64,000 nucleotides of DNA. It comes from Escherichia coli. GTDB taxonomy: Bacteria > Pseudomonadota > Gammaproteobacteria > Enterobacterales > Enterobacteriaceae. The notes under the pieces were generated by a model. That model was not told the origin of the DNA. It worked only from the letters and a program-made list of their open reading frames with translations, and did not search any database. This document shows, piece after piece, positions 19,552 to 23,401 of the stretch; position 1 is the stretch's first letter; each line of letters starts with the position of its first letter. The position numbers were made by a program, and so were the translations under genes. The stretch lies in assembly GCF_030013205.1 (NCBI RefSeq), contig NZ_CP122648.1; one strand, given 5' to 3'.

Positions 19552-19577
19552 CGTATAGCTTAACGTGTAGCTAAAAA
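19552..19577 (+). promoter_or_regulatory. arm-type repeat cgtatagcttaacgtgtagctaaaaa (copy of 32710-32735)
   Basis: 25/26 identity, in direct orientation, with the sequence just upstream of int. Contains the TAGCTA motif that recurs five times at 32661-32731. Confidence 0.6.
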
Positions 19578-20309
19578 TGTTTGCTGCAAAAGTATACAAT
19601 TTTAACCGTTATGACTCCCTGTTATCCGTTATCAAGCTGGTGGATGATCATGGATAACCCGTTATGGGAATCCCCATATCGGCATCAGGCCCACCAGCGC
19701 GACGCATTTTTTTAATTTCGCGGGTGTAAAAATTTGACGGGGCGGGCGGTCCCATAAGCAATGGGGGGTAGGGATTTCGATCCCCCCTCCTGAATGCAAT
19801 TTTTCGTATGTGGCTGTGCGTCCACCAGCTACGCCGGAATGGGGTATTCCGTTTCAACGGAACAGGTATGACGAACATGATCGCACCTTCTCCCGAAAAC
19901 GGTGCGACCTCCATAGAGGAAATGCCTATTCAGATCCCCGGTGATTTTCACCATTCAGAATCTGGAGGGTGAGTTTTCCAGTTTTCCCCAATGGGGGATT
20001 CTGGAACAATCAACGGGTTAGCGATTAAGCTGGCGAGTAATTAAACTGCGAAAATTTCGTAGTTTGTGAATATATTCCGGCTTGCTGGTTAACAGTCCTC
20101 AGATGTGAGGGATGTAGCCAGCGCAATTTTGCGTCGTCGGATATATCAACAACTTAGCACAAAAATAAGTCAGGCAGATACAAACCTCAAATTTGAGGTT
20201 TGCTTGTTTATCAACGGGTAAGGATAATCATCTCCCCTTTAAAGCCCCTTCGAAGGGTTACCCGTAGGCTTAATGTAAGGCTTGGCTGTAGCCTTACCGA
20301 ACGCTCCGC

Positions 20310-20496: not shown

Positions 20497-20775
20497 ACCT
20501 TAGGAAATCTTAGGGGCTGGTTGACACTTTCCGGCTTAAGACCTTAACAAATCTTAACATCGCAGGTTGACACACTTGACACTTTTTCGCGAAAAACCTT
20601 ATCAAACCTTAGCATTTCTAAGCATGGCAACTTGACACTTTTCGCGATTTTTTCGGCTTTTTGACGTGGTAAATCTGGCGAAAGGCCAGTAATGGCGGGG
20701 CTTACAGCGAGGTTGACACTTTTTCGCGTTCAGAGTGTAAAGTGTCAACCTGGCAAGCTGCTCAACTTGACACTT
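20497..20775. repeat. composite repeat array: about 7 TTGACAC(TTTTTCGCG) boxes interleaved with ACCTTAnnAAAyCTTA boxes
   Basis: TTGACAC at 20521, 20567, 20576, 20632, 20713 and 20766, inverted at 20741-20748, degenerate at 20661. ACCTTA..CTTA units at about 20497, 20541 and 20596. Immediately 3' of the HTH terminase-like gene. Confidence 0.8.
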
Positions 20776-20782
20776 TTTGAGG

Positions 20783-21310
20783 TCATTGATGGCCTGATTT
20801 TTCCCACTCAGCCAGGGCGTTTAGTCCGGCTTCACTCCAGTTATCCAGCTCATCGGGACAATCACCTGCAACATAGCAGAGCTCACAACGCAGCATACGA
20901 ATTGCCAGCCTGGCATTTTCCCGAAAATCATACTGCTCAAAGTAATATTGCCCAGCATAATCCTCAAGGCAGATAGCACCATCATCAAGAAATTGCACTT
21001 CACAGCATAGTTCCCCGGCTGCATCCTGTACACGCTGCTGTATGTCATTGTCCGTTACTGGTGCAGGGATTTTACCGTCTCTGGCCTTAACTGCTTTCCA
21101 GAACTCGCCCCACGTCATTTCCAGCGTTCTCTCTGGCCACATTTCAGAAACTGTGTCTTTTCCCTGTGCTGGTGGGCTGTTCCGCTGCTCTGTCGCTTCC
21201 ACATCGATTTTTTTACCGGACATGACCACTTCGCCTTTCTCGATCCAGTCGTAAACTGTCTGGCGGCTTACGCCTTTGTGTTTGGCATATTCTGCCTTGC
21301 TCATAAACAT
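20783..21310 (-). CDS. Nu1-like winged-HTH protein (small terminase-like or Rpp-like packaging specificity factor)
   Basis: 175 aa. The N-terminus SKAEYAKHKGVSRQTVYDWIEKG resembles the N-terminal HTH of lambda Nu1 / TerS proteins. GAGGGGAAG SD upstream. Confidence 0.6.
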   Translation of the reverse strand: MFMSKAEYAKHKGVSRQTVYDWIEKGEVVMSGKKIDVEATEQRNSPPAQGKDTVSEMWPERTLEMTWGEFWKAVKARDGKIPAPVTDNDIQQRVQDAAGELCCEVQFLDDGAICLEDYAGQYYFEQYDFRENARLAIRMLRCELCYVAGDCPDELDNWSEAGLNALAEWEKSGHQ

Positions 21311-21361: not shown

Positions 21362-23401
21362 TCATCCCAGGAACCGTTGAGCACCAATTAGTTGCGCGAA
21401 GTAATCGGCACCAGCGTTCCGAACAATTTCCAACTTAACGTTCTGATCATTGTTTCCTGCTGCAGGGACAATCCCACGATTCATAGCCAGCGCCCGGATC
21501 ACATCTTCAACACTTACAGCTTTAGCGGCAGCACCATTTTCATGGTTAATAATGCCCTGAATTAGCTTTTTCATGACCTCAAAATTAGAACCATCGATTT
21601 TCTCCTTAACACCTAATCCGGTGTACTGAGAGAGATAGCTTTTATAGGACGATGTGTTATTTCCATCAGATGAAGGGGCATAAATATCAATAATCTGATC
21701 AATCGTATTTTTGCCGCGTTTCAGGTATAGCATTACCTGCCGATCTAAGGCGGCAATGCCTTCCAGCATCGTCGGGAAGCTGGCAAAACGGGCATTTGGC
21801 CCCGATTCCAGGGTAGCCCCTTTTTGTCCTGCGAAATTAAGATTTCCGGGATTGTTATTCCTGATCCCTCTGGATAAATATGCAGATCTGTTTACTTGAT
21901 TTGAAAATCCCTGCAATCCTCCAGGCCAGACCTTACCCGGATTGTTTTTTTGCCACTCCTGCACTTCGTTAAAATAATCAAAGTTGAAACGCCCCTCCAG
22001 CCCTTTCATTTCCTCACTGGTGGTAGGTGTGTCATTTGTAGGAATAGCCAATCCAGCTACTGTTCCGGCTGTAGCCCCAAGAAGACTTCCACCAACAACA
22101 CGGGCGGCAACTCCGGTCGTTGTGGCTGCCACAGCACCAACTCTCGATGGTCCAGCAAGTACTGCGGCCCCAAAAAGCCAGGGATGTTCAACCGCAAAAC
22201 CAACAAACCCGCTAAGTGCCTTAACAACCTTTGCAACGTTTTCGGCAAAATTGTTCAGGTCGTTATTAAAATCCGGGCCATTTACGTACTTACCAAGTTT
22301 ATCCAGCCCCGTTTCTACATCCGTCAGAATCCTTTTAAAGTTCTCACCATTCATGAAATTCAGGGCAGCATTCGTGGCACCATCAGACATTCTGATTAAA
22401 GCGTCTTCATTCCCCGCCATTGCTCCCTGAAATCCGCTGGTAAGCCGATCCCAGTTTTTTTCCAGGTTACTGGTAATATTCTGATATTTACTTGTATGTG
22501 CAGAGGTCAGTAACGAATCATTCTGCGCTGCACGTAACGAAAACTCTTTGTTGAGTTCAGGTATTTTGTCCTGATATTTGACTAACTGGTTAGTAAGACC
22601 AAAATTTACCCATCCAAGCCCCATTCCTCTGAAATTGCTCTGGGTAAGACCAGTTCCCTGATATTCCTTTGCCAGCGCTGCAACCTTTTTCAGGAATACA
22701 GGCAGGTTTTCAGTCGCGTTTTTATCAGGATTTAGCCCCAGATTAAGCAGGCCGACGCGGGCAGGATGCGATATATCATTTTGTGCTGCTGCCAGTGTAT
22801 TGAGCACATTGCCAACACCGGAAAAATAAGGCGAATAAGTGCTTTCTGCCGCCTTTAACTCTCCTGGCGTTGCCACCAGCTCATCTGCATTTTTCTGTTT
22901 CTCTACAACACTACGGGACATCATGCCAAAGCCAAACGGTCCGGCAACGCCCATAACCGAGAGTTTTGTTCCCCACGATACGGTTGTTTTAAACAGGTTG
23001 TTTAATCTTGAAGTGGTCGTCTGTAGTGTAGAATTGATCTGCTTGTAAGTTTTCAGCGTCTGTTGGGCATTTTTCCCCAGCCCGCTGAGATACTTATCAA
23101 ACATCGTTTCGCCGCGACCTTTATAGTTGCTTACGAACGAATCTGCTGTTTTTCCGCTGCCGACAAAGCGCCCTTTTTCGTCCCTCACTCTCCCGGATAC
23201 ATCCGGTCCTGTCCGACCAGATTTTGCCGCCACGGGTAAGCCTGCCCCCACGCTGCGCCCACTTTGCCCCGGTATTTTCATCGGCGTTCCGGCAGGGCCG
23301 ATCATCAGCCCGTTGCGATACTTTTCAAAAATTGCCTCAAGCCGTTTGAGGTGTTCTTCATTAACGTCCAGCGTCAGAACTGGCATCTGATTACCTGACA
23401 T
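21362..23401 (-). CDS. tape-measure-like virion protein with C-terminal globular domain (RNNNPGN motif)
   Basis: 679 aa with a helical N-terminal two thirds and a Gly/Ala-rich hydrophobic segment (HPWLFGAAVLAGPSRVGAVAATTTGVAARVVGG...). Directly preceded by a two-frame chaperone-like gene, and its start overlaps the stop of the -1 frame (TAATG). Confidence 0.6.
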   Translation of the reverse strand: MSGNQMPVLTLDVNEEHLKRLEAIFEKYRNGLMIGPAGTPMKIPGQSGRSVGAGLPVAAKSGRTGPDVSGRVRDEKGRFVGSGKTADSFVSNYKGRGETMFDKYLSGLGKNAQQTLKTYKQINSTLQTTTSRLNNLFKTTVSWGTKLSVMGVAGPFGFGMMSRSVVEKQKNADELVATPGELKAAESTYSPYFSGVGNVLNTLAAAQNDISHPARVGLLNLGLNPDKNATENLPVFLKKVAALAKEYQGTGLTQSNFRGMGLGWVNFGLTNQLVKYQDKIPELNKEFSLRAAQNDSLLTSAHTSKYQNITSNLEKNWDRLTSGFQGAMAGNEDALIRMSDGATNAALNFMNGENFKRILTDVETGLDKLGKYVNGPDFNNDLNNFAENVAKVVKALSGFVGFAVEHPWLFGAAVLAGPSRVGAVAATTTGVAARVVGGSLLGATAGTVAGLAIPTNDTPTTSEEMKGLEGRFNFDYFNEVQEWQKNNPGKVWPGGLQGFSNQVNRSAYLSRGIRNNNPGNLNFAGQKGATLESGPNARFASFPTMLEGIAALDRQVMLYLKRGKNTIDQIIDIYAPSSDGNNTSSYKSYLSQYTGLGVKEKIDGSNFEVMKKLIQGIINHENGAAAKAVSVEDVIRALAMNRGIVPAAGNNDQNVKLEIVRNAGADYFAQLIGAQRFLG

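Follow-up and report, generated by a model that had tools for sequence, protein, structure and literature searches.

A Nu1-headed protein and its adjoining repeat array: a putative packaging-specificity pair of Escherichia coli phage satellites

A stretch of 64,000 nucleotides from the chromosome of Escherichia coli (contig NZ_CP122648.1 of assembly GCF_030013205.1; hereafter, the window) carries a gene for a hypothetical protein of 175 amino acids (WP_236448938.1; 20783-21310, minus strand), here called HTH175 after its N-terminal helix-turn-helix (HTH), and directly 3' of its stop codon lies an array of short repeats. The gene stands last among the core genes in the operon of a 13.2-kb island that, by its gene layout, is a phage satellite of the phage-inducible chromosomal island (PICI) type. 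HTH175 and the array form a DNA-binding pair that is well supported by the co-conservation of the two sequences, and we infer that the protein physically binds the repeated boxes. By analogy, the module may be a satellite packaging-specificity pair like that of the protein Rpp and its cosB site, but with a protein of a non-homologous family and with an explicit repeat code; this role is putative. No description of either the box sequence or the 175-residue protein was found in the literature searched.

The array is real in the statistical sense. The heptamer TTGACAC occurs 14 times in the window, and seven of these copies fall inside 253 bp (20521-20773): six on the plus strand, at 20521, 20567, 20576, 20632, 20713, and 20767, and one inverted, at 20742-20748. 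To these may be added two degenerate copies, TTGACGT at 20659 and GTGTAAA at 20735. A preliminary description, made from the letters of the window, had the six direct boxes and the inverted one right; it also credited most of the boxes with a long extension, which they do not have, as TTGACACTTTTTCGCG is exact in two of the six and TTGACACTTT is the common extension. Interleaved with the boxes farther from the gene are three units of the form ACCTTAnnAAAyCTTA (at 20497, 20541, and 20596, spanning 20497-20611 on the plus strand), each of them two TAAGG/TAAGA half-sites in tandem, with a spacing of about 10-11 bp. When at most one mismatch was permitted, the window gave three matches to this pattern, all in the array, where 0.05 would be expected by chance, and a repeat finder recovered a super-repeat of about 55 bp (20521-20560 versus 20576-20615, 78% identity, with box spacings of 55 and 54). 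Both features thus stand as they were first described, and units related to ACCTTAnnAAAyCTTA occur in other genera as well.

The boxes fall into two clusters. The one proximal to the gene (20713-20773) comprises the TTGACAC copies at 20713 and 20767, the inverted copy, and the degenerate GTGTAAA, which in the orientation of the gene follow one another as F-R-R-F. The distal one (20521-20638, plus strand) comprises the four direct boxes at 20521, 20567, 20576, and 20632, two of them within the super-repeat. Between the clusters lies a central segment free of boxes (20668-20705) with a conserved core, CCAGTAATGGC, at 20686-20696 (GCCATTACTGG in the orientation of the gene). This core is kept in arrays of E. 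coli, Raoultella (L006), Pantoea (L011), and locus L074 while the flanks have diverged, and it is a candidate for a cleavage site or for the site of a second factor.

The association of gene and boxes recurs widely. Of 5426 complete E. coli genomes, 169 carry the module, a single genome having as many as four copies, and it also occurs in at least 12 other genera of Enterobacterales. In genera including Rouxiella, Raoultella, Buttiauxella, Pantoea, Pseudocitrobacter, Lelliottia, and Mangrovibacter, nearly all copies of GTGTCAA/TTGACAC within 20 kb lie no more than 260 bp past the stop codon. When IMG/VR was scanned for exact matches to the inverted pair of boxes, 117 loci were returned, about 103 of which carry a homologue of HTH175, with the pair 40-90 bp past the stop codon. 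The consensus of 381 box copies is rAAAGTGTCAAsy. The protein family, which comprises 68 clusters, all from Enterobacterales, is unnamed in databases.

Within the family, the array has a stereotyped form. Subfamily 1a, whose proteins are at least 49% identical to that of the window, has arrays with the order F-R-R-F, a gap of about 80 bp, and then F-F-F-F, and in 34 of its 44 unique arrays the F-R-R-F portion has spacings of 25, 7, and 22. The arrays of subfamily 1b (35-40% identity) have the order R-F-F-F and a different conserved core of their own, and units of the type TTGAG-N5-TTGAG replace the ACCTTAnnAAAyCTTA units. At 1b loci L012-L016 and L153, the TAAGnTTTnnTAAGG units are replaced by units such as TTGAG-ATTTG-TTGAG, GTTAA-CTTTT-GTTAA, and GTTATG-GTTT-GTTATG, in which the paired half-sites are alike within a unit and unlike between units. 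The array of L153 is a hybrid of 1a and 1b, which suggests recombination at the boxes.

A second family (family 2), with proteins of 186-209 residues, was found at seven IMG/VR loci that have no homologue of HTH175 (L039, L082, L090, L106, L131, L143, and L144). It has in common with HTH175 a 42-residue HTH and nothing more (hhalign probability 96%), and its 8-12 TTGACAC/GTGTCAA boxes lie immediately upstream of its own gene. That gene is the terminal one of an island-like block, with no terminase after it, and no gene for the large terminase subunit (TerL) was found in the subfamily-1b and family-2 loci examined. Over about 120 related loci, of three or four lineages, HTH and box are co-conserved, and the recurrence of the same head and the same boxes with differing C-terminal domains and a differing order of gene and array is as a cognate pair of protein and site predicts.

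The heptamer TTGACAC by itself is not specific to the module, since unrelated mobile elements carry arrays of it. Such elements in IMG/VR, some of lower GC content, have dense TTGACAC arrays, with up to 18 copies per 300 bp (L287, 2150-2400; L290, 9900-10210; L272; L275; and L323). The array of L290, and apparently that of L287, adjoins a gene at its 3' end; in L290 this gene encodes a C-terminal HTH. Dense arrays of the L287/L290 type look like origins.

HTH175 itself is evidently a protein of two domains. An AlphaFold2 model built on a 49-sequence alignment (mean predicted local distance difference test score, pLDDT, of 89) has a winged HTH at residues 1-43 (21182-21310, minus strand), a disordered linker at residues 46-55, and an alpha/beta domain at residues 60-170 (the C-terminal domain as a whole being encoded by codons 58-172, 20795-21139, minus strand). 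The HTH is nearly invariant throughout the family (K5, Y8, A9, V14-Y20, W22, K34-D36, and A39). Residues 1-41 are almost constant, and over the remainder identity falls to 20-35%.

What kind of HTH this is can be judged from profile matches. Pfam gives HTH_17 and no other domain, below threshold, and excisionase profiles are likewise matched below threshold. Among PHROGs, residues 1-42 match phrog_57 ("terminase small subunit") in all 49 aligned members of the family (best E 1.6e-9, profile positions 11-57). Lambda Nu1 matches the same profile at E 1.3e-76, and phrog_57 is therefore the Nu1 family. On these matches, the HTH belongs to the family of Nu1 DNA-binding domains. The relationship is confined to that domain: no alignment with phrog_57 goes past profile position 57, and hhalign aligns HTH175 with Nu1 over 32 columns. 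The Nu1-like N-terminus noted in the preliminary description is thus confirmed, but the statement made there that the protein is "far shorter" does not hold; it has 175 residues against the 181 of Nu1, and its C-terminal domain is merely different.

Comparison of the predicted fold with structures in the PDB gave figures of 6.3 for Pukovnik Xis, 6.3 for the N-terminal domain of the lambda small terminase subunit (TerS; 6HN7_B), 6.0 for P2 Cox, 5.7 for the TerS N-terminal domain of 7LXS, 5.5 for BldC, and 4.8 for RppC (6HN7_A). The model is best described as a Xis/Nu1/MerR-wing DNA binder. Since excisionases, Cox, and TerS all have this fold, it cannot assign a function. The C-terminal domain, predicted with pLDDT above 93 to fold as H-E-E-E-H-E-H, is an orphan. 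A structure search found it no convincing relative, a BFVD fold search returned nothing significant, and a profile search with the domain recovered the same family and deletion fusions, with no informative domain fusion. Sequence and profile searches of the PDB with HTH175 gave noise, with no match to Nu1 or Rpp, and deposited phage genomes gave none to the module DNA, the 175-residue protein, or the family-2 protein. One fusion, P0051 of L153 (8001-9200), joins an AntA N-terminus to the C-terminal 90 residues of HTH175 and lies in a decayed island beside a SIR2-type gene pair. It was considered as a natural domain swap and rejected; it is derived by deletion, a remnant that retains the array and is uninformative.

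A head of the Xis/Cox type would suit a regulator, and this is the main rival to a role in packaging: HTH175 might be an architectural transcription factor like Cox, Xis, or BldC, polymerising on the array and thereby repressing, insulating, or activating transcription at the distal end of the island (perhaps of the 59-residue gene that follows the array, of accessory genes, or of antisense transcripts), with no part in packaging. Arrays of direct repeats are known targets of Cox and BldC. Matches to phrog_575 (Cox-like) and phrog_66 were found in 33-35 of the 49 members, the array in the window abuts the start of the 59-residue gene, and the family-2 array, upstream of its own gene, is placed like an autoregulatory operator. 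P2 Cox, lambda and Pukovnik Xis, and Streptomyces BldC are single-domain proteins of 50-90 residues, while HTH175 has an extra domain of 115, and their sites are at promoters or att arms, while those of HTH175 are at neither an att site nor a recognisable promoter. Against a regulator, the boxes, for all that they contain TTGACA, formed no sigma-70-like promoter in a promoter scan. The 59-residue gene is conserved and often adjoins the module, yet the arrangement is not fixed, for it lies 200-1000 bp from the array in sister islands and is missing in subfamily 1b. In that subfamily, the array runs into a terminator-like hairpin and then unrelated cargo, and hence there is no conserved gene that it precedes. 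Seven to nine sites over 280 bp around a conserved core are also more than an operator usually needs, and the best family match is to TerS, the excisionase and Cox families of PHROGs matching more weakly. A purely regulatory role seems unlikely, though less so than any of the other rivals taken up below. Should HTH175 be a Cox-like regulator after all, the Xis/Nu1/MerR-wing fold would nonetheless gain a member that is new, widespread, and of two domains, with a well-defined operator array.

The reading that we rate best, somewhat short of an even chance, is that HTH175 and the array constitute a packaging-recognition module, analogous to cosB, pac, or Rpp. It is rated so because of the slot downstream of the replication gene and origin (rep-ori), the lack of TerL, the match of the head to lambda TerS above all others, the precedent of Rpp, and the layout of two clusters and a core. 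In this island of the int-alpA-rep type, the module comes last in the operon and downstream of rep-ori, a position in which PICIs have their genes for packaging and interference; at L019, rep iterons stand directly upstream of the homologue's gene, and in subfamily-1b islands a single open reading frame separates primase from module. In EcCICFT073, the same slot downstream of rep-ori is occupied by Rpp and cos (PMC6739421). No TerL was annotated or detected in the island of the window, and the early remark that no large terminase follows the gene holds for the whole of this PICI-like satellite.

By this model of packaging, HTH175 would be a two-domain DNA-binding adaptor of a PICI-type satellite. 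The Nu1-type winged HTH would read the rAAAGTGTCAAsy boxes, in two clusters around the box-free core, and several copies of the protein on the array would make up a nucleoprotein complex that tags concatemers of the satellite for packaging. The array would then be a satellite-specific site like pac or cosB, and the orphan C-terminal domain would presumably dock the complex on the terminase of the helper phage. An invariant HTH joined to a C-terminal domain that diverges or is replaced fits a protein with constant DNA recognition and a variable domain for docking on a partner.

Several observations weigh against a role in packaging. The protein and its boxes occur in no deposited phage genome, that of the candidate helper type included, and the TerS of the candidate helper is unrelated to HTH175. 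The island has no lambda- or P2-like cosN. The fold of HTH175 is equally that of excisionases, P2 Cox, and BldC (for which the PHROG matches are the weaker ones), and its C-terminal domain is like no known part of a terminase. Finally, at two loci, L007 and L019, a homologue is present and a clear array is missing.

The closest precedent is Rpp of EcCICFT073, a small protein with a Nu1-like head that directs the TerS of the helper to a cosB specific to the satellite (PMC6739421). Members of the Rpp family bind TerS of the helper, block its packaging, and promote that of the island. Rpp and HTH175 are both small satellite-encoded proteins with a Nu1-like winged HTH at the N-terminus, both are encoded downstream of rep-ori in an int-alpA PICI without TerL, and each is paired with a DNA site of the satellite (cos1/cosB in EcCICFT073) unlike that of the helper. 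Nonetheless, HTH175 falls outside the Rpp family, because no homology is detectable in sequence, the C-terminal fold is another, no lambda or P2 cos is at hand, and the likely helper is of another kind. Neither phmmer nor the family profile matched Rpp at E up to 10 in a search of all PDB chains, 6HLK and 6HN7 included. The C-terminus of Rpp is helical and forms a homodimer and a four-helix bundle with TerS, whereas that of HTH175 is mixed alpha/beta. Islands with Rpp carry the cosN/cosQ of the helper along with their own cosB, whereas the island in the window (19.5-32.8 kb) contains no lambda cosN (up to 2 mismatches), no P2/186 cos (up to 3 mismatches), no phi80 cos, and no lambda-type cosQ. 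The helpers of Rpp are cos-type, while the candidate helper of the HTH175 island is pac-type. The sites also differ, in that those of HTH175 are explicit repeats in large number and the R-elements of Rpp were not defined. The specificity pair that the preliminary description saw here, of the Rpp/cosB kind, thus survives as a conserved pair of gene and array, shorn of cos-type packaging and of kinship with Rpp.

With lambda itself, the likeness is in the DNA-binding domain (phrog_57) and in the plan of the site, as cosB (R3-I1-R2-R1), like the array, has several sites in both orientations and adjoins the gene. Lambda cosB lies immediately upstream of Nu1, and the array of family 2 is placed likewise. 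The kinship of HTH175 with gpNu1 is limited to the first 43 residues or so. It lacks the central self-association region of gpNu1 and the C-terminal region that binds gpA (TerL), it has no adjoining TerL and no cosN, and the R elements of lambda are unrelated in sequence to its boxes. A layout of two clusters and a core has its parallel in headful phages: the pac site of P1, bound by PacA, and pacL-pacC-pacR of SPP1, bound by G1P, consist of short repeated boxes in two clusters that flank the cleaved segment, and in both the binding protein is the small terminase subunit. The array resembles these sites in layout, with no relation in sequence. HTH175 is homologous to neither PacA nor G1P, and the core is only a candidate cleavage site. 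As to P22, the unit TAAGATTTGTTAAGGTCTTAA (20541-20561) can be aligned by hand with its pac site, GAAGATTTATCTGAAGTCGTTA (L157, 4-25), at 15 of 21 positions with one gap, a match that chance might produce. An IMG/VR scan with TAAGATTTNNTAAGGT was non-specific, and the likeness of the unit TAAGATTTGTTAAGGTC to P22 pac is at most a weak lead.

A lead to the helper comes from the cargo of the island. Between the PerC gene and that of HTH175 lie phage-virion-like genes (21362-25415, minus strand), homologues, at 54-89% identity, of virion genes of Escherichia phage Rac-SA53 and "Actinobacillus" phage vB_Apl-pPE4. The protein p205 is 85% identical to pPE4 gp55, and p97, whose gene overlaps that of p205, is 79% identical to an overlapping unannotated frame of pPE4; the two look like a tail-chaperone pair. 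A transglycosylase (SLT-domain) protein of 679 residues matches pPE4 gp56 (tape-measure-like) at 89% identity through its first 501 residues and differs at the C-terminus. The two halves of pPE4 gp46 have their counterparts in a DUF2213 protein (54%) and p195 (64%), in swapped order relative to the phage gene. It is unusual for a satellite to have tail-chaperone and tape-measure genes of its own. These homologies make a phage of the pPE4/Rac-SA53 type a candidate helper. Phages like pPE4 have a Terminase_2 TerS and a Terminase_6N TerL, a set that usually denotes headful packaging, and if such a phage is the helper, then the site of the satellite should be pac-like and not cos-like. The pPE4 TerS (gp42) shows no relation to HTH175, and the pPE4 genome has a single TTGACAC in 47.5 kb and no array of boxes.

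This last observation speaks against a different use of the boxes, as a decoy that titrates a protein of the helper, since the candidate helper genome lacks them. Nor does it seem any more probable that the pair is a centromere-like site for partition or anchoring. Plasmid centromeres do consist of multi-copy repeats bound by small HTH proteins, but the island encodes no NTPase of the ParA, ParM, or TubZ type, and we give this pair of ideas very little credence.

Returning to packaging, one may ask what a constant head and exchangeable C-termini could accomplish. Possibly, though this is more doubtful than the packaging role as such, HTH175 and family 2 represent an adaptor class in which a fixed Nu1-type head is combined with interchangeable non-terminase C-terminal domains, of at least three to four types, to link a pac-like site to the terminases of differing helpers, among them pac-type (Terminase_2/Terminase_6N) myoviruses. 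Such a class would explain how many "Type C" enterobacterial PICIs are mobilised without recognisable packaging genes. EcCIMP1 and other "Type C" PICIs have the order int-alpA-PerC-primase and homologues of helper virion genes, with no packaging gene identified, and a helper transduces related PICIs that have PerC and AlpA, by a packaging mechanism stated to be not known (PMC11773190). The island in the window is of the same E. coli int-alpA-PerC-primase type and likewise has homologues of virion genes; EcCIMP1 differs from it in its length of 20 kb, its att site, and its P22-like helper (Kapi1). Many PICI-like islands of enterobacteria have no identifiable packaging gene, and here the module offers a concrete pair of protein and DNA site. 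If it is the packaging determinant, then the principle of Rpp would extend to a non-homologous family, and probably to pac-type helpers, with a recognition sequence defined precisely, beyond what the work on Rpp achieved for its cosB. It would also provide a signature, a Nu1-like HTH with a GTGTCAA array, by which satellites of this sort could be found.

Two clusters of iteron-like repeats are typical of replication origins, and the unrelated mobile elements L287 and L290 have TTGACAC iteron arrays beside rep-like genes. One might therefore suppose that the array is a (second) origin, with HTH175 as its initiator or as a recruiter of the helper replisome. This is quite improbable, as an origin of canonical PICI type is present elsewhere in the island, at 26.6-27.1 kb. 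Directly after the gene for a RepA-like helicase is an AT-rich spacer (26600-27115, 31% GC) that contains eight TCCTCACTTT iterons, some in each orientation, the probable origin of the island, and a rep gene followed by a spacer with iterons is the layout of origins in Gram-negative PICIs (PMC6092414). In sister islands, the C-terminus of the rep protein and the iterons vary together (ACTGTCTACC, ACTGTTCACC, ACGTCTACC, and CTTATCCCA), whereas HTH175 and the GTGTCAA boxes remain constant. Furthermore, the array, at 48-50% GC, is not AT-rich. It is not the replication origin of the island. The iteron variant ACTGTTCACC contains TGTTCACC, which we take to be the ori repeat of P4.

The ends of the island bear on one more alternative, that HTH175 is a recombination directionality factor (excisionase) and the boxes its att-arm sites. 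In favour of this are the Xis-like fold, the sub-threshold matches to HTH_17 and excisionase profiles, and the position of the module at the island end opposite the integrase, where lambda Xis likewise has its sites. The island, a 13.2-kb insertion beside tRNA-Pro, is bounded by direct att repeats of 16 nucleotides, AACGTGTAGCTAAAAA, at 19562-19577 (plus strand) and at 32720-32735, the latter adjoining the integrase gene and tRNA-Pro. From the att core to the end of the array is about 920 bp, but a directionality factor should have its sites no farther than about 150 bp from the crossover core, and in L014, with the only other att repeat found, some 3.6 kb separate that repeat and the stop codon. 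Different, arm-like short repeats (GTTATCCGTTATC) lie beside the core, at 19600-19660, and there is a gene for AlpA beside int. Excisionases have about 55-100 residues, but HTH175 has 175, of which about 115 form a further folded domain. The array is not an att arm, and there is scarcely any likelihood that the protein is an excisionase.

The remaining features of the island are those of its kind. It has the make-up of Gram-negative PICIs, with a tyrosine integrase and AlpA at one end, rep-ori, a size of about 10-15 kb, and att repeats, and its layout matches that of these satellites (PMC6092414). In the chromosome, it is flanked by nap-ccm-narP-yejO on one side and tRNA-Pro-yejM on the other, and a porcine strain of enterotoxigenic E. 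coli, ETEC4079, carries a stretch identical to that in the window. The core genes are all on the minus strand. They begin with the integrase (31403-32644; Arm-DNA-bind_3 and Phage_integrase domains) and AlpA (30697-30903), followed by an Icd-like pseudogene, DUF4222, the RepA-like helicase (27114-28529; AAA_25), and genes for an RNA chaperone of the ProQ/FinO family and a PerC-family regulator (25821-26647). Homologues of PerC borne by PICIs have been linked to control of virulence genes in the locus of enterocyte effacement (PMC11773190). An Rfam scan of the island found tRNA-Pro only and nothing within the array. The 59-residue gene (WP_016262941.1; 20310-20489, minus strand) has its start codon 8 bp beyond the array. 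Between this gene and the att repeat are about 730 bp (19578-20309) with no convincing open reading frame, within which lies a plus-strand terminator-like hairpin (20181-20202). This non-coding stretch may hold arm sites for the integrase and a small RNA.

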